Positions 7,172 to 30,166 of a stretch of DNA of 41,685 nucleotides are shown here, piece after piece. The DNA lies in IMG/VR virus record IMGVR_UViG_3300025875_000053, positions 1-41,685 of that record; one strand, 5' to 3'. Position numbers and translations under genes: made by a program. The stretch is from a virus. Lineage: Duplodnaviria > Caudoviricetes. Numbering within the stretch: position 1 is the stretch's first letter; each line of letters starts with the position of its first letter. The notes under the pieces are model-generated. The model was not told the DNA's origin, searched no databases, and saw only the letters and a program-made list of their open reading frames with translations.

Positions 7172-7202
7172 AAGCTTACCACGAACTTAGTAAGGACGAC
7201 AA
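7172..7202 (-). promoter_or_regulatory. Repeated operator/promoter
   Basis: TTGTCG-N18-TAAGCT including TTACTAAGTTCGTGGTAAGCTT. Confidence 0.8.
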
Positions 7203-14403: not shown

Positions 14404-16827
14404 ATGACGCAGACTAACACGGGAGCGGATCGTTACGCACCTAATCTGCCCGGAGAGGATCTGCCGCTCGTGGCAGAGCATCGCCGCGAACTCTTCCGGG
14501 ACAGCGCGATCGATCCGGAGGTTGCGCGCGAGCGCGGGTATATGAGCATCGGCCGCCCGGATCAGGAGACGAACTTCGGCGTGAAGCTGAACGGCCGATG
14601 GTTCGGCGGAGCCGGCGTATCGAGCCGCGACTTCCTCTCTCGTCTCGGGTTCCCGTCGTGGGCGATCCGCGAGAACTACTTCTACACGGGACTTTGGTTG
14701 CCGGCCTACTCCCCGCGCGGACAGATGTACGCCGGGCAGTGGAAGCCACGCAACGCCGTTCCGAACCGCGAAGGCAAGAAGATGAAGTACGCCTCCGCGA
14801 AGGGGAACGCGGTCCGGCTCGACGTGCATCCCCGATGGACGAAGGATCGCGGAGCAGACGATCCGGCTCTCCTGCCGTGGATCAATACCGTCGAGCGGCG
14901 GCTTTGGATCACGGAAGGCGTGAAGAAGGCGGACTCGCTCACCTCGCGCGATGAGGTGACGATCGCGCTCTCCGGCGTCTTCAACTGGCGCAACACGCAC
15001 GGAACGTTGGGCGATTGGGAAGACGTCACCCTTCGCGGCCGTGAGATCGTGATCTGTTTCGACGCGGACACGAACTCGAAGACACAAGTCGCGCAAGCTA
15101 TGGCGCGTCTCGGGAAGTGGCTTGTCCACAAGGGAGCGAAGAAGGTTCACTACTGCGTGGTTCCCTCCGAAGTCACGGCTCCGGACGGGACGATCTCAGG
15201 CGTGAAAGGGGTCGATGACTACTTCGCTGCCGGCGGCAGCGTGAAGGGTCTCGAACGCGTCTTCGCCACGAAGCCGCCACGCGTGGCAGATACAGAGGAC
15301 AAGTTCACGGACGCGCGTCTCGCGGAGACGCTCGCCGTGGAAGTGTTGGACGGCATGTTCTGTTGGGCGGCCGGTCTCGATTGGCTCGCGTACGACGGCC
15401 GGAGGTGGGAAGAGGTACATGAAGTCACCGTTCTCGAAGCCGTCCGGCAGTGGAGCGTGGATCACTTCGCGGCGGCAGCGGACCGTTTGAAGAACAAGGA
15501 CGACGCGACGGCCGCCGCAGACGTGGACGGGTGGCGCGGGATGCTCTCGAAGAACCGCGCGTCCTCCGTGCTCTCGATGGCTCGCGGCATCGTGGAGCGG
15601 AAGGCGGCCGACTTCGACGCGGATCCGGATCTCCTGAACATGCCCTCCGGCGTCTTCAACTTCACCACGGGAGAGGTGATGCCTCACTCGTCGGAGTTCC
15701 TCCACACGAAGATCACGAGCGGTTCGTACCGTCCCGGCTTCACGCATCCCGATTGGGATCGCGCGCTCGAAGTGCTGCCGGCCGACGTGATGGAGTGGTT
15801 CCGCGTTCGCGTCGGACAAGCCATCACGGGACACACGACTCCGGACGGCATCGTTCCGATCATGAAGGGAGGCGGAGAGAACGGGAAGGGTCTGCTCATG
15901 ACGGACGGCATCCTCCCGGCCTTCGGGGACTACGCCTCCCCGGCGTCTCCGAAGTTGTTCGCCTCCGCGAAGAACGAACACAGCACGGAGCGCGCGGAGT
16001 TGCGCGGGCAGCGCCTCGTGATCGCAGAGGAGTTGACGGAGGGACGCTCGATCGACGTAACGTCCTTGAAGCAGATCGCGGACGTTGGCCGGATCAAGGC
16101 GCGGCGCACGCACAAGGACAACATGGAGTTCGAGTCGAGTCACTCGATCTTCGCTACGACGAACTACACGCCGGTAATCGCGGAGACAGATCACGGCACG
16201 TGGCGACGGCTCGCGCTCGTTGTGTTCCCGTTCACGTTCGTCAAGCCGGGACAGCCGATCACGGATCCGGAGAACGAGCGGCGCGGCGATCCGACGTTGA
16301 AGGCGCGCATCAAGGCCGGACGCGGCGGACAGCATGACGCGGCCGTGACATGGGCGATCGAAGGCGCGCTCGCGTGGTATCGGAACATGGAAGCGATCGA
16401 AGCCGCCGTAGAAGCCGGAGAGGAGGCAACAGAGTCCGTCCTCCTGCCTCCCGCGCGCGTCGCGGAGGACACGCTCGCGTGGCGCAAGTCTGCGGATCGG
16501 ATCCTCGGGTTTTGGGAGGAGTGTCTCGTCCCGGACGCGAACGCTATCGTCATGGCTTCCGAACTCACGGACCGCTTCAACGAGTGGCTCGAAGGCGCGG
16601 GACATCACGCGTGGCCGAAGGAGACGTTCGGACCGCGCTTCAAGGATCACGCCGCGACGAAGCAGCACAAGGCACGGTTCGCCGGCCGTAAGCGCCTAGG
16701 GGACGCTGCCGCCTTCGTGGTACGCCGGCCGCAGGCGCACGCGTTCCCCGGCACGGAGAAGCCGATTCCGAAGCAGGTGGACGTGTGGTTCGGCTTCCGG
16801 TACCGCACAGACGCGGATGATGCTTGA
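14404..16827 (+). CDS. Primase-helicase (DUF3854 Toprim plus P4/D5-type SF3 helicase)
   Basis: WITEGVKKAD, ICFDAD, KGVDDY; GGGENGKG, LVIAEE, ATTNYTP, TWRRL. Confidence 0.92.
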   Translation: MTQTNTGADRYAPNLPGEDLPLVAEHRRELFRDSAIDPEVARERGYMSIGRPDQETNFGVKLNGRWFGGAGVSSRDFLSRLGFPSWAIRENYFYTGLWLPAYSPRGQMYAGQWKPRNAVPNREGKKMKYASAKGNAVRLDVHPRWTKDRGADDPALLPWINTVERRLWITEGVKKADSLTSRDEVTIALSGVFNWRNTHGTLGDWEDVTLRGREIVICFDADTNSKTQVAQAMARLGKWLVHKGAKKVHYCVVPSEVTAPDGTISGVKGVDDYFAAGGSVKGLERVFATKPPRVADTEDKFTDARLAETLAVEVLDGMFCWAAGLDWLAYDGRRWEEVHEVTVLEAVRQWSVDHFAAAADRLKNKDDATAAADVDGWRGMLSKNRASSVLSMARGIVERKAADFDADPDLLNMPSGVFNFTTGEVMPHSSEFLHTKITSGSYRPGFTHPDWDRALEVLPADVMEWFRVRVGQAITGHTTPDGIVPIMKGGGENGKGLLMTDGILPAFGDYASPASPKLFASAKNEHSTERAELRGQRLVIAEELTEGRSIDVTSLKQIADVGRIKARRTHKDNMEFESSHSIFATTNYTPVIAETDHGTWRRLALVVFPFTFVKPGQPITDPENERRGDPTLKARIKAGRGGQHDAAVTWAIEGALAWYRNMEAIEAAVEAGEEATESVLLPPARVAEDTLAWRKSADRILGFWEECLVPDANAIVMASELTDRFNEWLEGAGHHAWPKETFGPRFKDHAATKQHKARFAGRKRLGDAAAFVVRRPQAHAFPGTEKPIPKQVDVWFGFRYRTDADDA

Positions 16828-16846: not shown

Positions 16847-16933
16847 GTGTGAGCTGTGTGAGTAGCCTCAGGAAATCTCCTATACGTGTAGTGATTCTGA
16901 GAGTTTTCCTAGGGGTACTCACACAGCTCACAC
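16847..16933. repeat. 87-bp palindromic element 1 (putative origin)
   Basis: 18-bp perfect terminal inverted repeats GTGTGAGCTGTGTGAGTA around an AT-richer core, 20 bp after the primase stop. Confidence 0.8.
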
Positions 16934-16949
16934 ACCCTCCGGAACCTCC

Positions 16950-16990
16950 CTAAGAACTTAGTAGACATCCCCCTCCGAAGTTGGTAAGCT
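16950..16990 (+). promoter_or_regulatory. Operator plus promoter
   Basis: CTAAGAACTTAGTA overlapping TAGACA-N17-TAAGCT with TGG extension. Confidence 0.75.
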
Positions 16991-17039
16991 TTACCCATGC
17001 CCGGCGGAGAAGCCGCCGGAAGACGAAGGACGGTAGATC

Positions 17040-17771
17040 GTGAACACGGAGAACCTCAGCACGGCGAGCGTCAAGGCGATCGAAGCCGGCGGGACGAACA
17101 ACGTCCTGATCGGTCGCGCTCTCGTGAAGCGCGACGTCTTCGAGGAGACGGAGAACGGGATCTTCCGCTTCATGCCGACTGCGGAATACCTGAACTCCGT
17201 CATGCCGGCGGCTCCGACTGCGGACGAGATCGACGCGGAGAAGGCGTACGCGGAGCAGATCGAGCGCGAGGAGAACGCGGCGGACGACGGCTCTCACGAG
17301 CGGTGGGAACTCGCGCAGGCGGAGAAGGCCGATCGTCACATGGAGATCGAGGCGCTCTCGGACGAGTTCATGACGTGTGACGCGGAGCGCGCGGAGGAGA
17401 TCACGGCGCGGCTCGCGGAGTTGGGAGCGGAGGTTCCCGTCCTCCCTATGGACGCGCACACGAAGCAGATCGTGAACCCGGCGCTCACGGCGGAGCAGTC
17501 GTTCGCGGTGGCGATCCGGAATGACGATCTCGACGCGGCGCGGGAGATCCTCGGGAACGCGGCTCCGGCCGTCCGTGATCCCCGCGAGACGCGTTACGCG
17601 CAGATCGAGCGGTGGACGGACGACAACCTCGAAGTGAAGTACGGCATCCTCTCGCGGCGCATCATGCGGCGGACGCTTTTGAAGGCGGACCGTATGCAGG
17701 CGGAGCGGCAGTGTCAGATCGTGGAGAACGAACTCCTCCGGCGTGGCATCAAGCCGAACCGCAACGTCTGA
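17040..17771 (+). CDS. Hypothetical acidic protein, 243 aa
   Basis: RBS GAAGGA; flanked by promoter and hairpin. Confidence 0.8.
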   Translation: MNTENLSTASVKAIEAGGTNNVLIGRALVKRDVFEETENGIFRFMPTAEYLNSVMPAAPTADEIDAEKAYAEQIEREENAADDGSHERWELAQAEKADRHMEIEALSDEFMTCDAERAEEITARLAELGAEVPVLPMDAHTKQIVNPALTAEQSFAVAIRNDDLDAAREILGNAAPAVRDPRETRYAQIERWTDDNLEVKYGILSRRIMRRTLLKADRMQAERQCQIVENELLRRGIKPNRNV

Positions 17772-17777
17772 TCTGAT

Positions 17778-17814
17778 CGGCCCGGACGGCTTCGAGGGGG
17801 AGCCGTCCGGGCCG
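17778..17814 (+). terminator. Stem-loop terminator
   Basis: 14-bp inverted repeat CGGCCCGGACGGCT/AGCCGTCCGGGCCG. Confidence 0.6.
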
Positions 17815-17834
17815 TTCCCGTGGAAGGAGGAAGC

Positions 17835-18227
17835 ATGGCGGACAGTCTCTCGAAGTTCTTCGCAGACATCTATGACAAGTACGAGATCACGCCGGCAGAG
17901 TACCGGGCTCTCTACCGCGCGCAGGGTGGACGTTGCTTCGTCTGCCGCCGCGCGTCCGGGAAGGCGAAGCGTCTCGGCGTGGATCACAACCACCTTACGA
18001 GCGAGGTACGCGCGCTTCTCTGTACCGGCTCGCTGAACGCGAACACGTGCAACCGCCTTATCGCGTTGTACTCGCGTGAGGCTCTGCTTCGCGGCGCGGC
18101 CGTGCTGTCCGATCCGCCTCCGGCGCGTACCGTGCTGGCAGCGATGCGCGGGGAACACGACGGCGATCCGCTCATCCCGTCTCTCGTCGGGAATCCGTCG
18201 TTCCACCTCCACGAGGTTCTGCGATGA
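17835..18227 (+). CDS. Endonuclease VII family (resolvase-like)
   Basis: YEIT..EY...QGGRCFVC, LGVDHNH, VRALLC...CN; RBS AAGGAGG. Confidence 0.88.
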   Translation: MADSLSKFFADIYDKYEITPAEYRALYRAQGGRCFVCRRASGKAKRLGVDHNHLTSEVRALLCTGSLNANTCNRLIALYSREALLRGAAVLSDPPPARTVLAAMRGEHDGDPLIPSLVGNPSFHLHEVLR

Positions 18228-18856
18228 GGACGGCGCGGCTTCCGGAGTTCCCCGGCGAGCACGAGTTCGAGACCGTCATCACGGGCAATCTCGATCCGCG
18301 TCCGGACGATGCTCCCGAAGAGCCGGCTCCGGTGAAGTCGCTCGCGAAGGCGCTCGAATCCGGCGGATGGAAGACGAAGATCGGGTTCTCGCGTGCGTGG
18401 CGACGCGGGCAGCGGACGGGTACGTACCGGAAGGCGGAGTTCTTCGGCGTGTACGCCGGGGAGCACGAGGCTTCACCGTACCGCGTCGTTTCCGTCTACT
18501 GGCGTTTCGCGGACAAGACGGAGGAGTTCGCGTGGTTCCGTGACGTGATGGCTCTCGAAGCCACGGAGCGCGCCTGCGGAACGCCGGCTTCGTGGACGTG
18601 GCAAGACGGCCGCATCGTTCACGGCTTCACGCGTCACCGCGTCAAGGTCACGGACATCAAGGAGTTTGCGAAGGTTCGCGGTTCCGTGCTCCCCGGATGG
18701 TTCGCGGGGATTGCGCGGCGCTTCGCGGAGCAGGCAGCTAAGGCACTCTGCGGCGCGCGCGAGGAGCATCCGGCGCACGAGTGGGAGACCGGAGGCGGAA
18801 CGTTGAAGTCCTGTTCCGGGAAGGCATCGAAACCGAAAGAGGTGGAGGCTCCATGA
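18224..18856 (+). CDS. Hypothetical protein, 210 aa
   Basis: ATGA overlaps on both sides. Confidence 0.75.
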   Translation: MRTARLPEFPGEHEFETVITGNLDPRPDDAPEEPAPVKSLAKALESGGWKTKIGFSRAWRRGQRTGTYRKAEFFGVYAGEHEASPYRVVSVYWRFADKTEEFAWFRDVMALEATERACGTPASWTWQDGRIVHGFTRHRVKVTDIKEFAKVRGSVLPGWFAGIARRFAEQAAKALCGAREEHPAHEWETGGGTLKSCSGKASKPKEVEAP

Positions 18857-19107
18857 GGATCGGCCGGCATGTCGTCTACGAGCGGGAGTTCGATCACGGG
18901 AAGCGTGTTGTGTCCTTCGGGTTCGATCCGTCTCTCGCGGCGCGGCAGAATCTCGGAGAGGCGCTTCACGTGCTCGCGCAGGCGCAGGAGTTCGCGGAGC
19001 GGGACGCAGGGTTCCGGCCGTGCTCTCTCGAACTCGTCGCGACTGTCTCCCACGGGTGGCCGATCGCGCTCTCGTACACGCTTCACTTCGAGGTGACGCC
19101 GGTATGA
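18853..19107 (+). CDS. Hypothetical protein, 84 aa
   Basis: RBS GGAGG, ATGA coupling. Confidence 0.65.
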   Translation: MRIGRHVVYEREFDHGKRVVSFGFDPSLAARQNLGEALHVLAQAQEFAERDAGFRPCSLELVATVSHGWPIALSYTLHFEVTPV

Positions 19108-19220
19108 CGGATCTCGTGTGGCTCATGCTCCGGTACCCGTTCGCGGTGATCGGTGCGGCAGCGCTCCGGTACGCACGAGTGGAGGCGCGGCTTCGAGAGT
19201 TCGTCTACGGGGAGGCGTGA
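19104..19220 (+). CDS. Small hydrophobic protein, 38 aa
   Basis: ATGA coupling, RBS GAGGT. Confidence 0.5.
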   Translation: MTDLVWLMLRYPFAVIGAAALRYARVEARLREFVYGEA

Positions 19221-19289
19221 GTTCCTGCCGGACGCGGTATGCTAGCCGTACCGCGTCCGGCTTTTGGATCCTTATGGAATGGAGGAAAC

Positions 19290-19751
19290 GTGGCGCTCCC
19301 GAACCCGGCGCTCGCCGGACGGAACGGTCGCATATGGAAGCTGTATTGCCGTGGCCGAACGCAAGAATCGCTCGCGGAGGAGTTCGAGTTAACGCAGGCG
19401 CGCATATCGCAGATCATCGCGGAGGTTCGCGACACGATTCCCATTGAGGAACGTGACGCGCTCGTGAAACAGGAGACGGACCTTCTCCGGGATCTGCGCG
19501 CCGACGTCCTTCGCCTATGGGATGAGGACGCTCCGGATCTCGTCTCGAACGGCCGCGTCATCGAAGGCGTGAAGGATCACGGCGGCCGGCTCGCAGCACT
19601 CGCGCGCGCGGAGTCTCTGACGGCGCGGCTTCATCGTGTGCTAGGTCTCGACGCTCCCGCGAAGGTGGATCTCACACTTCCCGGTGAAGTGGCGGCAGCG
19701 CAGAAGGCGGCAGCGGACGCGGCGGCTCACCTCCACGGAGGCACGGAATGA
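19290..19751 (+). CDS. HTH protein, probable terminase small subunit
   Basis: GRTQESLAEEFELTQARISQII HTH; LGLDAP motif; upstream of TerL; RBS GGAGG. Confidence 0.7.
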   Translation: MALPNPALAGRNGRIWKLYCRGRTQESLAEEFELTQARISQIIAEVRDTIPIEERDALVKQETDLLRDLRADVLRLWDEDAPDLVSNGRVIEGVKDHGGRLAALARAESLTARLHRVLGLDAPAKVDLTLPGEVAAAQKAAADAAAHLHGGTE

Positions 19752-20341
19752 TGGCGGAACTCGCGCGGTGGCTCTCGAACCCGCTTGTCCTCGTTGGACT
19801 GTGCGCGATCATCGGAGGCGGGTTGCTCCTCTTCGTGGGATGGGCATTCACGGGGGAGTACGAACGCGGCGGACGGGAAAGCGTGCATCGCCGGCCGCGT
19901 CAAATGAAGCCGTGGCATCGTGAGCCGACCGGGGAGCAGGCGACGCTACCGCAGACGCAGGCTCCCGCGCGGCATCGTCTCGACACCGTACGCGAGGAGA
20001 CGACGAACCTAGGCGCGTACGTGGACACGCGACACACTTCGGCGCGCTCCCGCGTCGTGATGATCGGAGAGGATGGACTCGAACGTGGCGATTACCCCGG
20101 GACGACGCGACGTGTACGACAAGCTGAAAAAGAGCATGGGGAAGAAGAAGGCAGCGAAGATCGCGAACGCCGGCAAGACGAAGGCCGGACGGTCGAAGAT
20201 GGCGAAGAAGGCGGCAGCGACACGGAAGCGGCGCGGCCGGTAGGCGACGCGAATCTCCGTTGGTTCCGGAACACGGTCACGGGGGAAATCGTCATGGTGA
20301 ACGAGCGTGGCGAGCGGATCGATTGGGACAGCGGCGAATGA
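19748..20341 (+). CDS. Membrane-anchored hypothetical protein, 197 aa
   Basis: N-terminal TM helix; ATGA coupling at both ends. Confidence 0.6.
   Translation: MMAELARWLSNPLVLVGLCAIIGGGLLLFVGWAFTGEYERGGRESVHRRPRQMKPWHREPTGEQATLPQTQAPARHRLDTVREETTNLGAYVDTRHTSARSRVVMIGEDGLERGDYPGTTRRVRQAEKEHGEEEGSEDRERRQDEGRTVEDGEEGGSDTEAARPVGDANLRWFRNTVTGEIVMVNERGERIDWDSGE
20085..20243 (+). CDS. Nested small basic protein, 52 aa
   Basis: MAITPGRRDVYDKLKKSMGKKKAAKIANAGKTKAGRSKMAKKAAATRKRRGR in another frame inside 19748..20341. Confidence 0.6.
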   Translation: MAITPGRRDVYDKLKKSMGKKKAAKIANAGKTKAGRSKMAKKAAATRKRRGR

Positions 20342-20439
20342 GGAATCTAGGGCAGTGGATCCGCTGCCGCGTCTTCGGGTTGCATTCGCCTTCGCTCTAC
20401 GCGTTCGGCCGTTGCTACTGCCAGAGGAAGCGCCGATGA
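20338..20439 (+). CDS. Small Cys/His peptide, 33 aa
   Basis: MRNLGQWIRCRVFGLHSPSLYAFGRCYCQRKRR; ATGA overlaps with both neighbours. Confidence 0.55.
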   Translation: MRNLGQWIRCRVFGLHSPSLYAFGRCYCQRKRR

Positions 20440-21986
20440 GGTGGGATGCCGCGTGGCATCGACGGTTGCGGGAGATCATCGCGGATCTCCCGTTCCGTCC
20501 GCAGGCGGAACGCATCGCAGTGCGACGGGAGATCGCGAAGGATCCCGTCGCGTTTTCGATCCTCTACCTCTCGCATCACCTCCGCGACGCGCAGGGACGC
20601 GTGACGTTCTCAGAGGTTCACTACGAGTGGGCACGGATCGCGGAGTCGTGGCGCGGGGAGACCGGACCGCAGGAGAACCGACACGCGTTCATCGCTCCGC
20701 GCGAGACCGGCAAGTCTACGTGGTGGTTCCTCGTGCTCCCGCTATGGGCGGCAGCGAATCACGTGCGCCGCTTCGCCGTAGCCTTCGCGCACGCGGACGC
20801 GCAGGCGACCGGGCACCTTGCCACGTTCAAGCGCGAACTCGACACGAACACGCTCCTCCGCGCCGACTTCCCCGATCTGTGCGAGCCGGCGCGGAAGCAG
20901 GCAGGCGGAACGCTCGCGGACCGTCAAGGGATGCTCCATACGTCGGACGGCTTCGTCTTCGCTGCGCGCGGCGTGGACACTGCGTCTCTCGGCTTGAAGG
21001 TGGGAGAGACGCGTCCCGATCTCCTCGTCTTCGATGACATCGAGCCGGACGAGGCGCGCTATTCCGCCGATCTCGCGAAGAAGCGTCTCGGCACAATCAC
21101 GGACGCTCTTCTTCCGCTGAACATTCGTGCGGCCGTCGTCATGGTGGGAACGGTGACGATGCCGGGCTCCATCATGCATCAACTCGTGCGCGTTGCCGGC
21201 GGCTCCGATGACGAGGAGTTGAAGTGGATCCGCGATGAGCGCATCACTCCGCATCATCACGTGCCGATCCGTGAGAACGGGGACGGAACTCCGCGCTCGA
21301 TGTGGCCGGAGAAGTGGCCGATCGAATGGCTCCTCTCGATTCGGCATACGCGCTCGTACGCGAAGAACTACGCAAACGATCCAATGGGACAAGACGGCGA
21401 CTATTGGACGTCGGACGATTTCACGTATCAGTCGATGGGACCGTTCGCGACTCGATGGATTCTCCAACTCGATCCGGCCGTGACGACGAAGGGAACGAGC
21501 GATTACACGGGATGGGCAGTCGTGGCATACCGTCCGCCGGGACACGCGCTCGACGGACTTCCTCCGATCGCGGCCGGTAAGCCTATGGCCGAAGTCGTCG
21601 CGTCCGGTAAGATCCGCCTGACAGGCGAAGCGCTGCGCGCATGGGTACTCAGGAAGCTAGAAGAGTTCGAGCGCATCAAGGCGGTTCGTGTGGAGGTGAA
21701 TCAAGGCGGGGAGCTTTGGTACACGATCCTTCACGATCTGCCGGCAAAGCTACTCGTTCACACGTCCAACGAGTCGAAGGAGGTTCGCTTCTCCTACGCG
21801 CTCGATCTGTACCAACGGGGTCACGTTCTCCATCGGGAGCGGATGCGTGAACTCGAAGAGCAAATGGTTTCGTTCCCGAAGGCACCGTACGACGATATCG
21901 CGGATGCGGCAGTGTGCGGCGTGTTGTTCTTCCTCAGTGAGGTTCCGCGTCTACGGACGCACGTCGAGACTAGGAGTTACGTCTAA
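20436..21986 (+). CDS. terL: Terminase large subunit
   Basis: APRETGKST, RPDLLVFDDIE, LDPAV, FPKAPYDDIADA. Confidence 0.93.
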   Translation: MRWDAAWHRRLREIIADLPFRPQAERIAVRREIAKDPVAFSILYLSHHLRDAQGRVTFSEVHYEWARIAESWRGETGPQENRHAFIAPRETGKSTWWFLVLPLWAAANHVRRFAVAFAHADAQATGHLATFKRELDTNTLLRADFPDLCEPARKQAGGTLADRQGMLHTSDGFVFAARGVDTASLGLKVGETRPDLLVFDDIEPDEARYSADLAKKRLGTITDALLPLNIRAAVVMVGTVTMPGSIMHQLVRVAGGSDDEELKWIRDERITPHHHVPIRENGDGTPRSMWPEKWPIEWLLSIRHTRSYAKNYANDPMGQDGDYWTSDDFTYQSMGPFATRWILQLDPAVTTKGTSDYTGWAVVAYRPPGHALDGLPPIAAGKPMAEVVASGKIRLTGEALRAWVLRKLEEFERIKAVRVEVNQGGELWYTILHDLPAKLLVHTSNESKEVRFSYALDLYQRGHVLHRERMRELEEQMVSFPKAPYDDIADAAVCGVLFFLSEVPRLRTHVETRSYV

Positions 21987-23692
21987 TGCCGGGTAGCGCG
22001 GATCTGATCGAGGGAATGCGCGGGCTCGATGAAGCCGCGCCGTACTACGAGAAGATGTGGACGTACTTCGCCGGGGATCTGCCGGAGCGATTCGCATCGG
22101 ACCGCTTGAAGCAACTCATCGGCAAGACGGCGCAGGACTACCGGTTCCGGCTCGCGCGCGTTCCCGTCGAGACGCTCGCGAACCGTCTCGGCATCAACTC
22201 GATCGTCTCGTCCCGTGGCGACGCGGTGAATGCGCGCATCGAGGAGATCCGGCAGGCGAACGACATGGAGCTAGTCGAGCCGTTCATCACGGAACGGACG
22301 CTCGCTCTCGGAGACTCCTATCTCCTCGTGTGGCCGATCATAGACGAGGACATCGTTCGGGACGAGGAGGCTCCGGACTTCGACGCGCTCGCGGCCGGCG
22401 TGGAACTCGCGTATCAGTCGCCTCTCTCCTGCCGCGCCTTCTACGATTCGGAGGACGGCCGGCGGCAGCGGTTCACGATCCGGCGGTGGACGGAATCCAC
22501 GGCTCTCGGGAACGTATGGCGCGCGGAGGTTTGGTACGCCGATCGCGTCGAGCCGTTCATCTCGAATCCCGGCTCGAAGGGTCTCGACAAGGAGGAGTGG
22601 CGGGAGTACGCGGAGGACGCGGCCGGCGTGGAGACGGCAGCGACTCCCGACGTGTGGCCGGAGCCGCATGACTTCGGGGAGATCCCGATCTTCCACATGC
22701 GGACAGATATGCCGTACGGCCGTTCCGAGATCGAGGACTTCATCGGCGCGCAGAACATCGTGACGAAGGCAACCGCCACGCAGTCATCGGGCATCGAATC
22801 GAATGGGTGGCGCGAGCGCTACACGATCGCGGAGGACAAGGCGCTTCTCGAACAAAAGGCGGACATCGTTCCGTGGGGAGACGCGGCGGACGCGCCTGCC
22901 GCCGGTCCCGCGCCGCTATCCGGCCGGCGTACCGGTCCGGGCACGGAGCAGAAGTTCCACGGCGTCAAGGGAGTCGGAGAGTTTTCCGCTCCGGATCTCC
23001 GTGTGTTCGAGTCCCCGATCGATCAGTGGATTCGTCTCGGCGCGTCCGCATCCGGTACGCCGCTCACGGAGTTCGATCCTCGCTTCGGCGCGAATATGTC
23101 CGGCGTTGCATGGGATCGCGCGGAGCGGCCGATCCGGAAGAAGGAAGCGGACCGCAAGCGCTTCTTCCTCCGTTTTTGGCGCGAAGTCTACGGGCTCGCG
23201 CTCGCGATCGTCGGAGTTCGCGACGCCGGAGAGATCACGGTCAATTGGGCTCCGCCGGAAGTCGTCTCGGATCCGGAGTGGTGGGCAGTCGCAACCGCGC
23301 GCCGCGATCACGGCGTACCGCAACGTTCGATTCTCCTCGAAGCGAATTACACAGAGGAGCAGATCAAGGCATGGGAGGACGAGAAGGACGACGACGCGGA
23401 GACGCTCGATCGCGCGATTGCGCGTATCGCCACGTTGGGCGACGCCATGCAAAAGTTGGGAGCAGGCGCGACACTTCTCGGCATCCCGCCGGAGCGGATC
23501 GCGACGCTCATCGAACGTCTTCTCGAAGAGGCCGGCTCTCCGGGAAAGCTTGTCCTCGAAGAGAAAGAGCCTCTCGAACTTGAACCCGCCGACGATGACG
23601 AAGAAGCCGACGATGCCGAAGAGGTGCCCGCAGAAGAGACGGTACCGGGACGCGATAGCGGCGGCGCTCGCGCTCGAAGCAATGCGCGATAA
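21986..23692 (+). CDS. Portal protein (SPP1 gp6-like)
   Basis: Follows TerL; LALGDSYLLVW, HDFGEIPIFH, PYGRSE. Confidence 0.88.
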   Translation: MPGSADLIEGMRGLDEAAPYYEKMWTYFAGDLPERFASDRLKQLIGKTAQDYRFRLARVPVETLANRLGINSIVSSRGDAVNARIEEIRQANDMELVEPFITERTLALGDSYLLVWPIIDEDIVRDEEAPDFDALAAGVELAYQSPLSCRAFYDSEDGRRQRFTIRRWTESTALGNVWRAEVWYADRVEPFISNPGSKGLDKEEWREYAEDAAGVETAATPDVWPEPHDFGEIPIFHMRTDMPYGRSEIEDFIGAQNIVTKATATQSSGIESNGWRERYTIAEDKALLEQKADIVPWGDAADAPAAGPAPLSGRRTGPGTEQKFHGVKGVGEFSAPDLRVFESPIDQWIRLGASASGTPLTEFDPRFGANMSGVAWDRAERPIRKKEADRKRFFLRFWREVYGLALAIVGVRDAGEITVNWAPPEVVSDPEWWAVATARRDHGVPQRSILLEANYTEEQIKAWEDEKDDDAETLDRAIARIATLGDAMQKLGAGATLLGIPPERIATLIERLLEEAGSPGKLVLEEKEPLELEPADDDEEADDAEEVPAEETVPGRDSGGARARSNAR

Positions 23693-23762
23693 GGGAGCCG
23701 TCCGATTCTACCGCTGCCCGCACTGCGCGGGTTATCACGTCACGTCTCAGGAGAAGCGATGA
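23613..23762 (+). CDS. Small Zn-binding protein, 49 aa, similar to 3135..3323
   Basis: CPQKRRY...YRCPHCAGYHVTS; overlaps the portal 3' end; ATGA coupling downstream. Confidence 0.6.
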   Translation: MPKRCPQKRRYRDAIAAALALEAMRDKGAVRFYRCPHCAGYHVTSQEKR

Positions 23763-24115
23763 GCATTCGGTACGCGAAGGCGGAGATCGTCCGCGTCGTG
23801 GACGGCGACACCGTTCACACGAACCTTGATATCGGATGGGGAATCATCCTCCGTCCGCGCATCGGCAAGGAGTACAACTTCGGGACGCTGCGCATCGTGT
23901 TTCCCGATGGAAAGGGTTACGACTGCCCGGAGCGCGGGACGGAACTCAATCGGCGCGCGATGCAATACCTCGCGGAGACAGTGAAGCCGGGGCAGATTCT
24001 CCACGTGATTTCCCACGGGATCGCGACGGACGGCCGGCGAACGGCCGCGTCTGTTACCTTCGAGGACGGTCGCGATTGGGCGACGACGCTAGCGGGATGG
24101 GGATACACGAAATGA
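23759..24115 (+). CDS. Thermonuclease (SNase)-like protein
   Basis: IVRVVDGDTV, YDCPE, DGRRTAA motifs. Confidence 0.75.
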   Translation: MSIRYAKAEIVRVVDGDTVHTNLDIGWGIILRPRIGKEYNFGTLRIVFPDGKGYDCPERGTELNRRAMQYLAETVKPGQILHVISHGIATDGRRTAASVTFEDGRDWATTLAGWGYTK

Positions 24116-24399
24116 GCATCGAGATTCGGTTCGGGGACGAAGACTCGCCGGTACACGAGGAAAGCATCAAGGTTCTCGATCAGGACTTCGAGATCCCGCC
24201 GGACGCGCTTCCCGTTCGGATTCAGGTCGGCTCGATGCCGTTGACGGTAGTCGGGTGGATCACGGGAGCGGATGCGCTGCCGGCGCTCCTCCGCGACGTC
24301 GCGCGCGCAAACGAAGAGGCTTTGGAGGAATGGGATGCCGCCACGCCGGAAGCTAGCCGAACGGGCTCCAACGGCGAAGAGGCCGGCATCGACGGGTGA
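24112..24399 (+). CDS. Hypothetical protein, 95 aa
   Basis: ATGA coupling; MSIEIRFG... Confidence 0.6.
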   Translation: MSIEIRFGDEDSPVHEESIKVLDQDFEIPPDALPVRIQVGSMPLTVVGWITGADALPALLRDVARANEEALEEWDAATPEASRTGSNGEEAGIDG

Positions 24400-25336
24400 C
24401 GATACGCCCGACGAGGAGACGCTAGCCTTCGAGGAGGCGGTACGGGAGGACGTCACCGGGCAGGCTGTCCGGGCCGTGGAGGCGCTCATTCGCGCTGTCC
24501 TGACTGCCTTCGAGGGTGCCTTCCTCAGCGCCGGAGAGACGCTCTCAGACCGGCAGGCGGAGCAGGTGGGGAAGGCCGTAGGCGCGCGGATCCGGCGGCA
24601 GCGGTGGGAGCCGATGGAGCCGGCGCTCCGGCAAGCGGCCGTGGAGGCGCATCGTCTCGGCGTTTCCCGTGCTGTGCAACGGATCCCCGGCGAAAAGGCG
24701 AAGGCTCGCGCGCGCAAGACGAAGACTCCGAAGAAGCGCGACGTTCCCGCCATTGACGCGGCGCTTCGTGAGGCGCTGCGTGAAGCGGAAACCGTTGCGA
24801 GACAAGGGATCCGGAACCGCACGGAAGCGGCGGCAGTCGCGGCGAAGATCAGCAAAGGGAAGGCGCGGATCGAGGGACACGCTCGCAGCGTCGCGAACGA
24901 AGGGATCAACGCCGGGACGATCGACGTCGCGCGCACGATGAAACTCCGCGTGATGTGGATCGCGGAGCGGAACGCGTGTCTCGACTGTCTCGCACACGCG
25001 GGTTACGTCGTGGAACCCGGCCGCCTGTTCCCCGGCGTCTCGTTCGATCCGAAGGCGCGCAAGGTGCCTGCGGTTCCGGGCTGTCCGCTCCATCCCAACT
25101 GTCGATGCCAACTCCGCGTGACAGATGAGCCGGCAGGGAAGCCGCCTTCGTCCCGATCGAGTCTGTCGCCGGCAGCGCGTCTCGCGGCGGAAGCGCGCCG
25201 ATCGGTTGTGTACCAATGGACGGAGTACGAATCCGGTCCGGCAATGCAACGCGCGGCGGAGTCTCTCCTCGCTGCCGGAGCCGGCCTTCCTGCTAGTGTG
25301 GAGACACGCGCGCGGCGGATGCTGCGCAAGAAGTGA
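24335..25336 (+). CDS. MuF-like minor capsid/head morphogenesis protein
   Basis: WIAERNACLDC and PLHPNCRC; lies between portal and scaffold. Confidence 0.8.
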   Translation: MPPRRKLAERAPTAKRPASTGDDTPDEETLAFEEAVREDVTGQAVRAVEALIRAVLTAFEGAFLSAGETLSDRQAEQVGKAVGARIRRQRWEPMEPALRQAAVEAHRLGVSRAVQRIPGEKAKARARKTKTPKKRDVPAIDAALREALREAETVARQGIRNRTEAAAVAAKISKGKARIEGHARSVANEGINAGTIDVARTMKLRVMWIAERNACLDCLAHAGYVVEPGRLFPGVSFDPKARKVPAVPGCPLHPNCRCQLRVTDEPAGKPPSSRSSLSPAARLAAEARRSVVYQWTEYESGPAMQRAAESLLAAGAGLPASVETRARRMLRKK

Positions 25337-25351
25337 CGAGGAGGCTAACTC

Positions 25352-25519
25352 GTGGAGGACTTCGCGAAGATCGCGTATGAGGCATACGCGAAGGCGCGGG
25401 ACAATCGAGCCGTGAACGGCGATCCGCTGCCGGCGTACGAACATCTCGACATCAACGTCCGTTCGGCATGGGACGCGGCAGCGCAAGCGGTTCTCGCTGC
25501 TTCGTCGGGTGGCGAGTGA
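25352..25519 (+). CDS. Small hypothetical protein, 55 aa (not in ORF track)
   Basis: MEDFAKIAYEAY...LPAYEHL...AWDAAA; RBS GAGGAGG; TGATG coupling. Confidence 0.65.
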   Translation: MEDFAKIAYEAYAKARDNRAVNGDPLPAYEHLDINVRSAWDAAAQAVLAASSGGE

Positions 25520-26082
25520 TGGCAGACGACGACGCGGACGACAAGACGCAGGACGACGCGGACGAGACCGAAGAGACGACGGAGGACGACAAGGCCGGCG
25601 ACGATTCGGACGATGACGACGACGATTCCGGCGATACCGAAGACGACAAGGGAGCGAAGAAGGATCCCGAACTCGTCAAGGCGATCAAGGCGCGCGACCG
25701 TGCGAAGAACGAGGCGCGGCGGCTCCGGGCGGAACTCGACAAGTCGAAGAAGCCGGACGACGACGAACCGGATCCGGTCGCGGAAGCGAACGTGAAGATC
25801 GTTCGTACGGCGGCTCACGGCATCCTGCGCGGTCTCGGCATCGAGGACAAGGACGATCGCGTCGCCGTGCTCGATCTGCTCCGGCTCGATGATGTGACCG
25901 TGGACAAGGACGGCGCGGACGAGGACGAGATCGAGGAGCGGATCGAGAACCTCCGCTCGATTCTCGGCGCGCAGCGCAAGACAACCGCGCGAGTTCCGCG
26001 TACCGTGAAGGGGAATCGGGAGACGAAGGAAACCAACTCCGATCCCGATAAGAAGCGCTACGCGCGGATTCTCGGGCGGTAG
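25519..26082 (+). CDS. Capsid scaffolding protein
   Basis: Asp-rich N-terminus, coiled coil, directly upstream of the capsid gene. Confidence 0.8.
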   Translation: MADDDADDKTQDDADETEETTEDDKAGDDSDDDDDDSGDTEDDKGAKKDPELVKAIKARDRAKNEARRLRAELDKSKKPDDDEPDPVAEANVKIVRTAAHGILRGLGIEDKDDRVAVLDLLRLDDVTVDKDGADEDEIEERIENLRSILGAQRKTTARVPRTVKGNRETKETNSDPDKKRYARILGR

Positions 26083-26271
26083 CTCGCGGAGTGGTTCCGG
26101 TCCCACCTATCCGGCCGGCGTTGCGAGCCCGGCTCCTATGCGGAGCCGGGCTCCTTCGTGTATCCTCGCAGGCAGGCACGGAGCCGGACGGCTTCCGCCG
26201 GAACACGCATTGCCGGATGGCAAGCGGGACGATCCCCATCCCTCACGCCATACCGAAGGAGTGTGACCGGC

Positions 26272-27264
26272 GTGACCACCAACCGTCAGGATCTCGAAAA
26301 CCTCATCCCGATCGAAACCTCGCAAGAGGTGATTCAGAAGGTCGCGAAGACGTCCGTCATGGAGGCGATCGCGCCGCCGGAGACGATGGCGAGCGACACG
26401 AAGCAGGTCGCGCGGTTCGGCGGGTTCTCCGTCGCGTCGGTCGCGAAGGGTGCCGAATACGGCTTCTCCACGAACACGCAGGATCTCGTGGACCTCATCG
26501 CGCGGAAGATCGGTGGCGCGGCGAAGGTGGCCGAAGAGGACCTCACGGACACGATCACCGGTGAAGGCACGATGCGCCGGTACGAGCAGGAGGCCGGCTC
26601 CGCGCTCGCGAAGACCTTCGACCACGCGTGCATCGGAACCACGGGCGCGATGAACGGAACGACGGTCCCGTTCCAATCCATCTACGCCTGCGTGGCGACG
26701 GCGCAGAGTACGCCGTGGGGAGCGTACGCGGCGGCAGCGAACCGGATCCAGGTCCCGCGCCTCACGGGTGGCAACCCGACTCCGGCCGCGACGTGGCTCG
26801 ACGCGGTGGCGGACTTCCTCGGGCTCTACGAGGAGAGCGACTTCTACGACGAGGCGAACACGTTCATGATCGCGTCGCCGCAGATCAAGCGCACGTTCCG
26901 CAAGATCCGCAACGGCGACGGCGAGCCGCTCTTCATCGACGGCAACCGTACCGGCGCGGGACCGTCCCTCTTCGGTGCGACGGACTTCCGGTTCTCCACG
27001 GGCGCGCGCACGCACGCGACGATGACGGACACTCCCACGGGGAACCCGCTCATCATCATCGGCAACCGCAACGCGTTGAAGCGCGGGCTCGCGCGGACGT
27101 CGGCCGGCATGGTCCCCGGCAATCCCGGCGTTCAGTGGCAGCGCGCGGCGCAGGGCATCGGCTTCCTCTCGGACGAAGCCATCATGAAGGCGATGATGCG
27201 CCGCGCCTTCGTCTGCACGGTCCCGCAGGCGATCGCGGTTCTCGAAATCACGCCGGGTTCCTGA
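26272..27264 (+). CDS. Major capsid protein (HK97 fold)
   Basis: LIP.E.SQEVI, LIARKIG...VAEEDL, LAKTFDHACIG; RBS GAAGGAG. Confidence 0.9.
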   Translation: MTTNRQDLENLIPIETSQEVIQKVAKTSVMEAIAPPETMASDTKQVARFGGFSVASVAKGAEYGFSTNTQDLVDLIARKIGGAAKVAEEDLTDTITGEGTMRRYEQEAGSALAKTFDHACIGTTGAMNGTTVPFQSIYACVATAQSTPWGAYAAAANRIQVPRLTGGNPTPAATWLDAVADFLGLYEESDFYDEANTFMIASPQIKRTFRKIRNGDGEPLFIDGNRTGAGPSLFGATDFRFSTGARTHATMTDTPTGNPLIIIGNRNALKRGLARTSAGMVPGNPGVQWQRAAQGIGFLSDEAIMKAMMRRAFVCTVPQAIAVLEITPGS

Positions 27265-27270
27265 TCGACT

Positions 27271-27303
27271 CCGGCCGTCCGGTTCCCCGTGCCGGACGGC
27301 CGG
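27271..27303 (+). terminator. Stem-loop after the capsid gene
   Basis: 12-bp inverted repeat CCGGCCGTCCGG/CCGGACGGCCGG. Confidence 0.6.
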
Positions 27304-27344
27304 TCCCCGTCTTTCCACTCGCAAACGCTCGAAAGGATCCGATC

Positions 27345-27617
27345 ATGTCGGACGAGACGAAGAACCTCGAAGGTCAGTCGTTCCGGAACGAGGCGCTCAC
27401 CGGTTCCGGCTCCATCACGTCGGACGGGACGTACGCCGATCCGCTGCCGGATCCCACGGAGGTACGCGGGATCTCGGAGCGTCGGACGTCCGGCGGCCGG
27501 CTCATCGCGGAGCCGCCGTCCTCGGAGGTGGCGGACGCGTTGAACCCGGACAAGGCGAAGCAGTCCACGCCGGCCGCGAAGGCGGCTCCCGCGAAGCAGA
27601 CGCGCGCGAACTCCTGA
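27345..27617 (+). CDS. Hypothetical virion-associated protein, 90 aa
   Basis: RBS GAAAGGA; followed by hairpin 27624-27660. Confidence 0.7.
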   Translation: MSDETKNLEGQSFRNEALTGSGSITSDGTYADPLPDPTEVRGISERRTSGGRLIAEPPSSEVADALNPDKAKQSTPAAKAAPAKQTRANS

Positions 27618-27687
27618 GAACTCCGCCGGGGACGAACGGTAGCCTCCTCCGTCCCCGGCGGCTCTCTCACGAAAGGAAGGTGATCGC

Positions 27688-28125
27688 ATGGCATGGGCAA
27701 CCGTCGAGCAAGTCCGGAACGTAACAGGGAAGGACTTCACGGAGGAGACGATCGCGCTCGCTTCGTCCATCATCGACACCTTCTCCGGCGCGGACGAGGA
27801 ACTCCCGGAGGACGCGATCTCCGGCGTGGATCGTCGGCACCTTCGGCGCGCTACCGCGTGGCAATGCTTCTTCGCGGTGAAGCCGGGACTCGTGGAGGAG
27901 CGCGAGAACGCGTCCACGGTCACGAGCGATACGCAGAGCATCACGCGCGAGGATCGCGCCGACGTCTTCCTTCATCCGCTTGCGCGGCGCGAACTCGCGT
28001 CGCTCTCGTGGATCGGCACGCGGACGGTTCTCGTTCCCCGCGTTGACGTCCGCTCGCAGGAACGGAACTTCCTCAACGAGCGCAGCGATCCGGCCGGCTT
28101 CGGTGGCGAAGGCGCGATACCGTGA
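27688..28125 (+). CDS. Head-to-tail adaptor
   Basis: MAWATVEQV start, size and synteny. Confidence 0.75.
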   Translation: MAWATVEQVRNVTGKDFTEETIALASSIIDTFSGADEELPEDAISGVDRRHLRRATAWQCFFAVKPGLVEERENASTVTSDTQSITREDRADVFLHPLARRELASLSWIGTRTVLVPRVDVRSQERNFLNERSDPAGFGGEGAIP

Positions 28126-28454
28126 TTGCGACTCCCACGACAACCGTGACGATTCTCGGCAGCGGCGAAGAGGAGTCCGAGTATGGCGACGTTCTCGACT
28201 CCGAAACGCCGGCCGGCTCCGGCATCCCCTGTTCCATTGTGGAAGGCCGGCAAATCGTCTCGACGGAATCGGATCCGCAGGCGCGCGCGATTCTGTACTA
28301 CACGGGCAGGGTTCCGAACGGAACGGTAGTCGATGAAACGAATCGACTCCGGGACGAGAAGACGGGAGAGACGTACGTCATCGATCACGTCACCCGTCCG
28401 CACAATCCGGTGATGAGTCCGGACGTAAGGCTTGATCTTCGACGCGTCCAGTAG
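28122..28454 (+). CDS. Head-to-tail stopper
   Basis: Beta-rich 110 aa, SEYGD, synteny. Confidence 0.7.
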   Translation: MIATPTTTVTILGSGEEESEYGDVLDSETPAGSGIPCSIVEGRQIVSTESDPQARAILYYTGRVPNGTVVDETNRLRDEKTGETYVIDHVTRPHNPVMSPDVRLDLRRVQ

Positions 28455-28523
28455 GGTACGCTCGACACGTCCTGACAAGGGACGCGGGACGGATGGACTA
28501 ACCCGACAAGGGGAGGTGGACGA

Positions 28524-28832
28524 ATGGCAGCACGGACGCGTGTCGTAATGAACGGTCCCGGACTCGTCCAACTCCGCCGCGTCGTGGACGCGGAAGCCGT
28601 TCACCCGATCACGGATCTCGTCGCAGAAGACGCGCGCCGCTACGTTCCTGTTCTCTCGGGAGACCTTCTCTCCACGATCGAGGCGGAACATCTCGAAGGC
28701 GAAGGCCGGGTTCACTGCGGAGACATCGGGCGCGGGATCGACTATCACCTCTATCAAGAGTTCGGAACCTCCAAGATGGAGGCGCAACCGTACATGCGGC
28801 CGGCTCTCTTCAAAACACGGGTGATCGCATGA
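28524..28832 (+). CDS. HK97 gp10-like neck protein
   Basis: VPVLSGDL..I and YQEFGTSKMEAQPYMRPA. Confidence 0.85.
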   Translation: MAARTRVVMNGPGLVQLRRVVDAEAVHPITDLVAEDARRYVPVLSGDLLSTIEAEHLEGEGRVHCGDIGRGIDYHLYQEFGTSKMEAQPYMRPALFKTRVIA

Positions 28833-29290
28833 CGGCTCCCAACCTCCACCACCCGACAAGCGAGTCTGTCGCCGTAGCGTGGCTTAAAACGTGGTTTCCG
28901 GTAGGCGTGGCGACGACGCTCCCGAAGCCGGGCACGTGGAGCGTTCTCTCCGGCGACATTCAAGGCTTCGGAACCGTGGCGATCGTAGGCGGCAGGATCG
29001 CGGCCGGCTTCGGCCGGATGCCCGTCGTCTCTCTCGGAACATGGGCGGCCGTTCCTGGCAGCGATCGGCCGCAGTGGAACGCATCGAACCAACTCGCGGA
29101 GAAGATCGTCCGCGTCTGCCTCACTCCGACGTTCGCTCCCGTATTCGTCCGTCAGTCTGCCGGGTACGAACGCGCACTCGTCCACGGAGTACGTCTCGTC
29201 TCCGAACCGAGACGCATCCCGGATCCGGACGCGTCCACGGCACATTACGAGACAGAGTTCGTCCTCGTGTGGACGGCCGAACCGGACTAA
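28829..29290 (+). CDS. Tail terminator
   Basis: Size and synteny before the tail tube gene. Confidence 0.7.
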   Translation: MTAPNLHHPTSESVAVAWLKTWFPVGVATTLPKPGTWSVLSGDIQGFGTVAIVGGRIAAGFGRMPVVSLGTWAAVPGSDRPQWNASNQLAEKIVRVCLTPTFAPVFVRQSAGYERALVHGVRLVSEPRRIPDPDASTAHYETEFVLVWTAEPD

Positions 29291-29304
29291 CCGAAGGAGA
29301 CGCA

Positions 29305-29463
29305 ATGCGAACCATCCGTACCACGATCCGTCCGGACGAGACGATCGAAGTCGAGGAGGACGAGTTCGCGGACTTGTCCGCGCAGGGACTCGTGAAGGAA
29401 GAGATCACGGCGGAGGCTCCGAAGCCGAAGCCGGCGACGCAGGGAGGAACGTCGAATGCCTAG
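29305..29463 (+). CDS. Small hypothetical protein, 52 aa
   Basis: RBS GAAGGAG; MRTIRTTIRPDETIEV. Confidence 0.7.
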   Translation: MRTIRTTIRPDETIEVEEDEFADLSAQGLVKEEITAEAPKPKPATQGGTSNA

Positions 29464-30031
29464 CGCATCGAACATCATCGCCGGAGCGGCGGAACTCTTC
29501 CGCGCAGAGTTCGGCGCGACGGAGCCGGCCGATACCGCCGTGGCCGATCCGATCGCGGCTCCGTTCGCGAGTCTCGGCGGAACGGACGACGGGGTAACGC
29601 TGAACGTCGCGCACGAATGGATGAATCTGCGCATGGATCAGATCATCGATTCGGCCGGCAAGCGGAAGACGGGACGGACGATCACCGTCGCGACGAACCT
29701 CGTGGAGGGGACGCTCGAAAACCTCCTCCTCGCGCTCTCGCAGAACGAGGACACGATCGACACCGGAGGGGTCGGCGCAACCGCGTTCCGCGCCTTCGAC
29801 GTCGAGGGGGACGATTCCGGCGCGGAGCCGGATTACTCGTCCATCATCCTCCGGGGACGCGCGCCTCTCGGCAAGCGCCGCCTGTTCATCCTGCGGAAGG
29901 CGCTCTCCGTCGAGGACGTCGAAGCCGCGTACAAGAAGGACGATCAGTGGCTCATCCCGGTCACGTTCGAGTGCCATTGGGTGTCCACGTCGATCCGGCC
30001 GTTCCGCGTGGTGGAGTCGGCCGCAGTGTGA
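29456..30031 (+). CDS. Major tail (tube) protein
   Basis: LGGTDDGVTL, TNLVEGTLENL, AYKKDDQWLIPVTF; precedes the chaperone. Confidence 0.85.
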   Translation: MPSASNIIAGAAELFRAEFGATEPADTAVADPIAAPFASLGGTDDGVTLNVAHEWMNLRMDQIIDSAGKRKTGRTITVATNLVEGTLENLLLALSQNEDTIDTGGVGATAFRAFDVEGDDSGAEPDYSSIILRGRAPLGKRRLFILRKALSVEDVEAAYKKDDQWLIPVTFECHWVSTSIRPFRVVESAAV

Positions 30032-30032
30032 C

Positions 30033-30119
30033 GTGTGAGCTGTGTGAGTACCCCTAGGAAAACTCTCTACGCGTAGGGTTCTATAGGGATTTTCCTGAGG
30101 CTACTCACACAGCTCACAC
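30033..30119. repeat. 87-bp palindromic element 2
   Basis: Same 18-bp terminal inverted repeats as 16847-16933; inner arms in inverted order. Confidence 0.8.
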
Positions 30120-30166
30120 ACTCAGAGTTTCCGCACGTCAACCGCTATATGGAGGAGGCTACCCCC

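Follow-up and report, generated by a model that had tools for sequence, protein, structure and literature searches.

Two palindromes in one phage genome

What do two copies of one palindrome, set about 13 kb apart, do in the genome of a tailed phage? The window, by which we mean the whole stretch of 41,685 nucleotides analysed here (IMG/VR record IMGVR_UViG_3300025875_000053; Duplodnaviria, Caudoviricetes), is a whole virus record, circular by its end repeat of 127 nt and classed as complete. It carries one 87-bp palindrome (E1) directly after a primase-helicase gene and a second copy (E2) in the virion operon. Our preferred explanation, to which we give a probability of roughly 55%, is that E1 serves the phage's own primase-helicase as loading site and replication origin, and that E2 is a second origin, complete in itself but dispensable, which has stayed matched to the same protein and is probably used in lytic growth. 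This explanation draws on sequence comparison and a predicted winged helix, with binding and replication argued by analogy. The elements and boxes below were placed from the sequence itself:

16847..16933, unstranded: E1, 87-bp palindrome, probable primary origin (architecture shared beside the primase in 34/38 records)
16847-53 and 16856-62, mirrored at 16918-24 and 16927-33, unstranded: GTGTGAG boxes of E1
16871-75 and 16904-09, unstranded: inner GGAAA/TTTTCC boxes of E1
30033..30119, unstranded: E2, second 87-bp copy, at the junction of the tail tube and tail assembly chaperone genes
30033-39, 30042-48, 30104-10 and 30113-19, unstranded: outer boxes of E2
30057-62 and 30090-95, unstranded: inner boxes of E2
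29456..30031, plus strand: tail tube protein gene, directly 5' of E2 (weak Pfam match to Phage_TTP_17, E 0.005; position in the virion operon)
30149..30481, plus strand: probable tail assembly chaperone gene, 3' of E2 (named by its place before the tape measure gene; no family match)

The original prediction, made from the letters of this DNA alone, had described two 87-bp palindromes at these coordinates, with 18-bp arms and heptamers at 9-bp spacing, and all of this was confirmed far beyond chance. The terminal inverted repeats of both elements are 18 bp long and perfect, with two GTGTGAG heptamers per arm whose starts are 9 bp apart, and only 2 of the window's 10 GTGTGAG/CTCACAC heptamers fall outside E1 and E2, which account for the other 8. 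Folding z-scores of the two elements were −8.4 to −9.7, a level reached by none of 200 shuffles, and an architecture detector made 2 calls in the real window and responded in 1 of 100 shuffled windows. The predicted placement was also correct: E1 begins 20 bp beyond the end of the primase gene (stop at 16827), and E2 begins 2 bp beyond that of the tail tube gene (stop at 30031), ahead of the probable chaperone gene. The distance between the elements is 13,186 bp, or 32% of the circle. Their centres are 62% (E1) and 57% (E2) AT, compared to 36% genome-wide and a family mean of 52-53%. Contigs from a public run, which is probably the source sample and hence not independent, match E1 and E2 without differences.

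E2 was also found to be largely the reverse complement of E1, as had been claimed: 70/87 positions match in the inverted comparison and 60/87 in the direct one, the inner arms are swapped, and exact inverted stretches of 29 and 35 bp are common to both elements.

A family of palindromes beside the primase gene

An exact 18-mer scan of viral contigs gave 0 matches and a comparison of E1 to 50,697 phage records gave none. In relatives, similar palindromes with other repeat words were found in the DNA that follows the primase gene. We describe the family by its architecture, using a sequence-free detector (2 + 2 hexamers, 8-10 bp spacing, 76-99 bp span) on 38 records. Besides the window, these comprise two annotated phages (one of them over 50,000 of its 50,774 bp) and 35 fetched records, of which 34 were picked from 59 loci, mainly for completeness, and one is G030. 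The element was found to adjoin the primase-helicase gene in 34 of the 38 records, with 0 matches in 5 shuffles of each automatically scanned genome; the element of G047 was found by eye and the site in G037 came from a strict scan, since the gene there wraps the contig end. Members of this family are palindromes of ~85 bp in which 2 + 2 short repeats at 9-bp spacing surround an off-centre core, and each record has its own repeat word. Across 78 elements arm complementarity was 0.94-1.0 at the two boxes, 0.68-0.79 at the inner box and ~0.2-0.4 at the centre. It should be noted that the outer boxes belonged to the detection rule, and the inner box and core did not.

The position of the first copy bears on a further explanation, that the palindromes are RNA hairpins (a terminator or stability element) following the primase and tail tube genes. 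Both E1 and E2 do follow closely on a stop codon, and their single strands are predicted to form strong folds. However, the first copy is found 5' of the primase gene in 7 records and within a long (fused) open reading frame in the large relatives, the latter fitting a DNA site rather than a terminator. One of the second-copy sites is directly before the capsid gene, the symmetry is concentrated in discrete boxes, no U-tract terminator was called at E1 or E2, and Rfam returned 0 matches for the elements. We consider this explanation very improbable, and a hairpin effect may occur as a side effect even if the elements are origins.

Some further occurrences of the pattern were seen. A degenerate form matched L033:10001-10092, L030 and L031, which carry a GTGTGA-type palindrome pattern and lack this primase family; these were left out of all counts, and they are possibly the same design with another initiator. 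The first element of G004 (L006:12380-12510) extends to a perfect 44-bp inverted repeat, longer than that of other relatives. A comparison of the G007 element to plasmids gave only its self match.

The primase-helicase as likely initiator

The gene that ends just before E1, and its last domain, are:

14404..16827, plus strand: 807-amino-acid P4-family primase-helicase (Pfam DUF3854, D5_N, superfamily 3 (SF3) helicase (DUF5906) and Pox_D5)
16489..16824, plus strand: C-terminal winged-helix domain, the predicted origin-binding domain (model with a mean predicted local distance difference test (pLDDT) score of 85.7)

The protein matches TIGR01613 above the cut-off and has profile matches to African swine fever virus (ASFV) C962R, poxvirus D5 and 7OLA. 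Comparison of the C-terminal model by VIA gave a Z of 9.0 to the RFX DNA-binding domain (RFX-DBD, 1DP7) and a Z of 7.1 to the P4 origin-binding domain (1KA8; root mean square deviation 2.7, 80 residues aligned), and a Foldseek search with the model gave nothing at E ≤ 0.001. The predicted winged helix thus resembles the domain with which P4 binds its origin, and for this reason E1 is likely an origin. The product of 14404..16827 is likely the initiator that binds both E1 and E2. Together with the membership of E1 in a primase-linked family of iteron palindromes, and with the conservation of E2 under the same repeat word, this supports the predicted origin function, and we regard E1 as very probably a replication origin.

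The second copy across relatives

Among the 29 near-complete genomes with the element, 15 were found to have two copies and 14 to have one. Five partial records had one copy each, all of five additional records selected from the GTAC clade had two, and three copies were seen in no record examined. In the possibly incomplete assemblies of Frankia (L118) and Labedaea (L114), primase-side elements were found with no second copy. The second copy was intergenic and within the virion operon in all 15 two-copy genomes, at one of three sites: between tail tube and chaperone genes (n = 3), between protease and capsid genes (n = 7) or at a tail-region junction (n = 5). It lay 32-50% of the circle away from the first copy in 18 of 18 near-complete two-copy genomes. 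As a separate observation, the GTAC clade includes relatives of 76-99 kb (G007, G008, G011, G016 and G049 among them), and 10 of 10 checked had exactly two copies, 42-48 kb apart.

A search of relatives for a conserved second copy had been suggested as a check, and E2 was indeed found to be kept at the same junction in close relatives. The closest relative, G001, carries both elements at the window's positions, and three more loci have E2. The E2 junction is occupied in G001, G004, G026, L249 and L250 (the last two being contigs which cannot be extended to the primase side, so that they inform on the E2 region only) and is empty in G030 (41 bp). In single-copy kin the homologous junction measures ≤46 bp in 9 of 10 large genomes, and in the single-copy genomes G034 and G048 it was also found without an element. 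Relaxed scans for a degenerate second copy in single-copy genomes found none, the best non-origin score being ≤19/24.

These empty junctions are relevant to the suggestion that the two sites form an obligatory pair, as in phage P4, whose crr site must be present in cis and is not known to be a copy of ori. Both E1 and E2 would then be needed in cis. A P4-family primase-helicase with a P4-like winged helix and the presence of the same boxes at both sites are in favour of such a pair. The 14 near-complete single-copy relatives weaken it, as do the negative relaxed scans, the short junctions in 9 of 10 large genomes and the fact that E2 is a full copy of E1; we think an obligatory two-site replicon improbable.

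On the primase tree (32 rows, midpoint root; G023, G025, G030, G037 and the two annotated phages were left out) at least 4 changes of copy state are forced. Because of these changes and the three different sites, the simplest reading is that the second copy was gained independently at least 3 times. Repeat words are genome-specific, common to both copies and clustered on the primase tree, and the second copy always bears the resident word, even where a junction is shared across primase branches. For example, G004 (TGCAAG) and G000 (GTGTGA) share a junction and differ in words matching their different primases, as do G055 (GGTTAC) and the TAGAC clade. The two copies in G004 are 98% identical. 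The two copies of the large GTAC clade have drifted apart over their inner 52 bp (0.48-0.69 alike) and agree at 23-24 of 24 box positions, which suggests selection on binding. Both recent copying (G004) and long separate maintenance (the large GTAC clade) are therefore seen. All 16 second copies which were scored had a positive core score, and more than the boxes has therefore been retained.

The same data can be held against the idea that E2 is merely a duplicated origin, neutral or selfish, whose likeness to E1 is due to gene conversion and nothing else. This idea would accommodate the exact 29- and 35-bp tracts common to E1 and E2, the near identity of the copies in G004, and the finding that in 8 of 10 genomes of ~40 kb the inner similarity within a genome is at least as high as that to the best orthologous second copy. 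However, copy number never exceeds two, the second copy is always in the virion operon, three separate junctions are used, and in the large clade the inner sequence has diverged while the boxes have not, so we give little credence to a neutral duplicate. A miniature inverted-repeat transposable element (MITE)-like insertion element was also considered and rejected: there is no duplication at the flanks and the copy number is only 1 or 2, with one copy always beside the primase.

Orientation of arms and core

The original prediction had noted that the arms of E1 and E2 are inverted and that the core nevertheless reads the same way in both. This was upheld, as the core centre lies at position 39-40 of 87 on the plus strand in both elements. 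A core motif was learned with orientation left free and scored by leave-one-out, with the following results for the window:

16880..16891, minus strand: off-centre core of E1, near-palindromic and CG-centred (leave-one-out score 11.7 on the minus strand, −9.5 on the plus strand)
30067..30076, minus strand: off-centre core of E2 (leave-one-out score 14.3 on the minus strand, −3.3 on the plus strand)

The core points with local transcription in 44 of 50 elements (one ambiguous) and in 19 of 28 more, giving 63 of 78. Both cores of the window are reversed relative to this usual polarity, and in the window's own group (n = 8) the core was with transcription in 3 elements and against it in 5 (one weak), both window copies being among those against. 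By comparison of markers, the window's E1 looks wholly inverted relative to E1 of G001; in E2 of G001 the inner part is inverted relative to G026 while the outer markers agree; and the window's E2 is inverted at the centre only. These differing breakpoints fit local flipping between an element's own arms. The pattern of inverted arms around a co-oriented core therefore likely arose, to judge from these markers, by such local inversions together with exchange between copies, and template switching is probably the source of the in-place inversions. These flips suggest that the orientation of the element is not essential.

A different source of the inverted arrangement had been offered, in which recombination between E1 and E2 flips the head module. 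Such inversion of 13 kb could be a switch, or an amplification flip like that of the 2-micron plasmid. The 35-bp exact inverted match would permit a crossover invisible to 31-mer contigs, and one hybrid 31-mer was found, at a depth of 1 compared to about 110. A word at this depth fits a read error. Profile searches found no integrase, resolvase or protelomerase in the window genome (no match to PF00589 or PF00239 at E ≤ 0.1, or to PF16684), the same profiles giving control matches in 14, 13 and 1 of 14 genomes, respectively; a host enzyme is conceivable. G000 and the closest relative G001 are colinear, the segment has the same orientation in G000, G001 and G004, the copies in G004 are direct repeats, and a flip would break up an operon whose genes all point one way. 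In the probable source run the contigs end at the 35-mer common to both elements, as they should; through the 29-bp arm they show no trace of an inverted form at appreciable frequency, the 35-bp arm being beyond their reach. Two further runs (X2 and X3) contained relatives in fragments only and have no bearing on E1 or E2, and contig depth is no measure of initiation. Inversion of the head module is thus unsupported and, in our view, highly improbable. A protelomerase (telRL) site was likewise rejected, as there is no PF16684 match and the record is circular by its end repeat.

What the second copy may do

If E1 and E2 are both origins, the following course of events can be put forward. By inference from the SaPI (Staphylococcus aureus pathogenicity island) Rep protein and from plasmid pRN1, the winged helices would bind the two box pairs of an element, one SF3 hexamer would load on each side, the centre would open and the primase would start two forks. 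With one hexamer per side and two forks, the orientation of the element would matter little. E2 would fire once the primase-helicase is abundant after induction. A protein-loaded E2 may also stall forks coming from E1 and aid the switch to concatemer synthesis, as proposed for oriR of phage SPP1. E2 would be dispensable for basic replication and would serve lytic growth.

The closest competitor to this proposal is that E2 binds the primase-helicase without firing, either as a fork barrier for the switch from theta to rolling-circle replication or as a titration or pairing site which limits the copy number of a plasmid-like prophage. The distance of 32-50% of the circle in every near-complete two-copy genome would suit this, as would the SPP1 oriR model, in the parts of these reports cited here (PMC6316719, PMC3485210), the presence of endonuclease VII, exonuclease and SF2 (superfamily 2) helicase genes in the window, and the better conservation of the boxes than of the inner sequence. 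However, second copies keep an inner box, spacing and core beyond the needs of binding, and recombination genes are also found in single-copy relatives, with an endonuclease VII homolog in only 3 of 15 two-copy genomes. We consider a non-firing site unlikely, though deserving of serious attention, and firing at E2 is favoured over pure blocking because the inner box and the core are kept in second copies.

Several observations weigh against E2 as an optional second origin, or against E1 and E2 as origins at all. Present evidence does not separate firing of E2 from blocking or titration, 14 of the 29 near-complete relatives manage with a single copy, and neither terminase class nor the presence of endonuclease VII tracks copy number. 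In 4 of 38 records no element was found, namely G023 (gene cut), G025, OscarSo and LuckyBarnes (partial similarity only). The AT content of the centre is just slightly raised (52-53% family-wide), unlike that of SaPI origins, the Z of 7.1 to 1KA8 is in the middling range by the tool's own scale, and the bias of core polarity towards transcription (63/78) is unexplained by a purely symmetric origin.

A more elaborate version of the two-origin explanation, which we put forward as speculation and judge rather unlikely, is a developmental switch between two origins of one enzyme. E1 would keep the plasmid-like prophage, and its counterpart among the late genes, at a distance of one third to one half of the circle, would be turned on by late transcription and yield packageable concatemers; it would have been gained at least three times and re-copied from E1 when primases were exchanged. 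If this is true, relatives with one and with two copies allow the SPP1 oriR idea to be tested in nature.

Two-copy elements are present in Streptomyces strains in culture (pS1D4-14.2, and the contigs from which L123 and L126 derive) and close relatives have one copy. The long-standing and unproven proposal that oriR of SPP1 triggers the switch to rolling-circle replication is thereby open to a direct test. The elements are also compact, easily spotted candidate origins across a wide range of actinomycete phages and phage-plasmids, and the many distinct repeat words could serve as compatible replicons for Streptomyces tools. Of wider interest is that a second origin would have arisen more than once within the virion operon and stayed in step with its initiator.

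Gene setting of the window

The window has a G+C content of 64% and a siphovirus-type virion operon, and relatives of its primase are mostly from actinomycete phages, plasmids and prophages. The product of 3943-5889 is a P-loop protein related to Streptomyces plasmid proteins (weak match), and an SpdA-like gene lies at 6307-7182 (weak DUF2637 match). Based on these weak matches, we label the two TraB-like and SpdA-like. A TraB/FtsK-like gene and an SpdA-like gene are thus found inside a tailed phage with no detected integrase, and the TraB-like gene is common to the window and G001-G005. It is a reasonable inference that the phage lives as a plasmid-like prophage with TraB-type transfer, and the gene content suggests a small conjugative phage-plasmid. 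No ParA was found among the window open reading frames scanned.

Given these genes, E1 and E2 had also been suggested as loading (clt) sites for the TraB-like translocase. The P-loop protein and the SpdA-like gene are indeed present. However, homologs of the TraB-like protein were found in only 3 of the 15 genomes with two copies, in 3 of the 14 with one and in none of 28 additional records (a distant TraB would escape), and the element follows the primase. This suggestion found no support and we give it next to no weight.

A 219-amino-acid protein encoded at 9424-10083 (minus strand) adjoins the exonuclease and is kept in G001-G003, with no family match; by position only, it is a candidate single-strand binding or annealing protein, and a fold model made with annealing in mind was unusable (pLDDT 43.7). 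A motif of ~20 bp (the ACCACGAACTTAGTAA family) recurs in the early region at about 990, 3360, 7173, 8323 and 13990, with variants at 1337, 1398 and 16951. Several copies lie just 5' of minus-strand genes and end in an extended −10-like word on the same strand, and a similar motif is found in G005; the family is a probable operator/promoter set. One related feature lies close to E1:

16951..16990, plus strand: operator-like palindrome with promoter-like hexamers TAGACA-17-TAAGCT, ~20 bp past E1, kept in G001 (found by eye)

A sigma-70 scan did not flag these hexamers. Elsewhere, a strong terminator-like hairpin with a T tail lies at 19227-19261, at the start of a small helix-turn-helix regulator gene before the terminase region, and the tape measure gene holds 132-bp periodic repeats (31800-32610). 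The GC skew turns near the switch of gene strand at ~14 kb and was of no use for locating an origin.

Comparison with known systems

A literature search by title and abstract (supplements were outside its scope) found no description of the element. The contribution of the window is comparative and consists of repeated gains of the second copy, empty junctions in its kin, repeat words that follow the resident primase, and flips in place.

The window shares with P4 a P4-family primase-helicase (TIGR01613), a winged helix which aligns to 1KA8 and two iteron-bearing sites. It differs from P4 in that the second site is a full copy of the first and is absent in 14 of 29 near-complete relatives.

SaPI origins, as described in the parts of the sources cited, provide a closer likeness. 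They lie directly after the pri-rep gene with at least 2 short iterons per side in opposite directions (PMC9371898), and the SF3 helicase has a C-terminal winged helix (Rep/PriRep5, self-loading), to which the window's profile match to 7OLA corresponds (bioRxiv 10.64898/2026.10.17.759575). Two features of a SaPI/P4-type system were found in the window, namely a gene for a primase, an SF3 helicase and a predicted C-terminal winged helix, with at least 2 opposed iterons per side beside the rep gene. However, SaPI origins are ~300 bp in length with 6-12 iterons and a marked AT-rich centre (PMC9371898; bioRxiv 10.64898/2026.10.17.759575), whereas the window's family packs 4 boxes into ~85 bp around a conserved off-centre core, the AT richness of its centre is mild, and a second copy occurs.

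The origin of the Sulfolobus plasmid pRN1 is an inverted repeat or stem-loop of ~100 bp with a ~20-bp stem, required and movable according to the cited portion of the report (PMC4234260). As in the window, this repeat lies just after a gene for a primase-SF3 helicase-winged helix protein, and its sequence varies among relatives while its shape is kept. In contrast, pRN1 has an archaeo-eukaryotic primase and is described there as a single copy without iterons (PMC4234260). Among actinomycetes, RepA of the bidirectional Streptomyces plasmid pWTY27 protects a ~105-bp inverted repeat of short repeats (IR2), and the window likewise represents a probable actinomycete replicon with an inverted repeat built from short repeats; pWTY27 differs in having a separate RepA and prim-pol RepB and a 300-bp iteron field, in not being a phage, and in that the cited part of the source mentions no second copy (PMC3583192). 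The cited part of PMC4487206 gives no origin data.

For the two-site layout the nearest likeness is SPP1. Its oriL and oriR lie ~13 kb apart with oriR in the late region, and according to a proposal as yet unproven, as far as the cited portions of these papers go, forks are stalled at oriR and concatemer synthesis is set off (PMC6316719, PMC3485210). Both phages thus have two similar origin-type sites ~13 kb apart, one at the initiator gene and one in the late virion region. However, SPP1 has a separate origin-binding protein, loader and DnaB-type helicase, families of which none was found among the window open reading frames scanned, and the window has one fused SF3 primase-helicase. The window's site is also a compact 87-bp palindrome, and half of its relatives are without a second site. 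The window is not a member of the SPP1 system; its elements would work like a SaPI/pRN1-type origin in an SPP1-like two-site layout.

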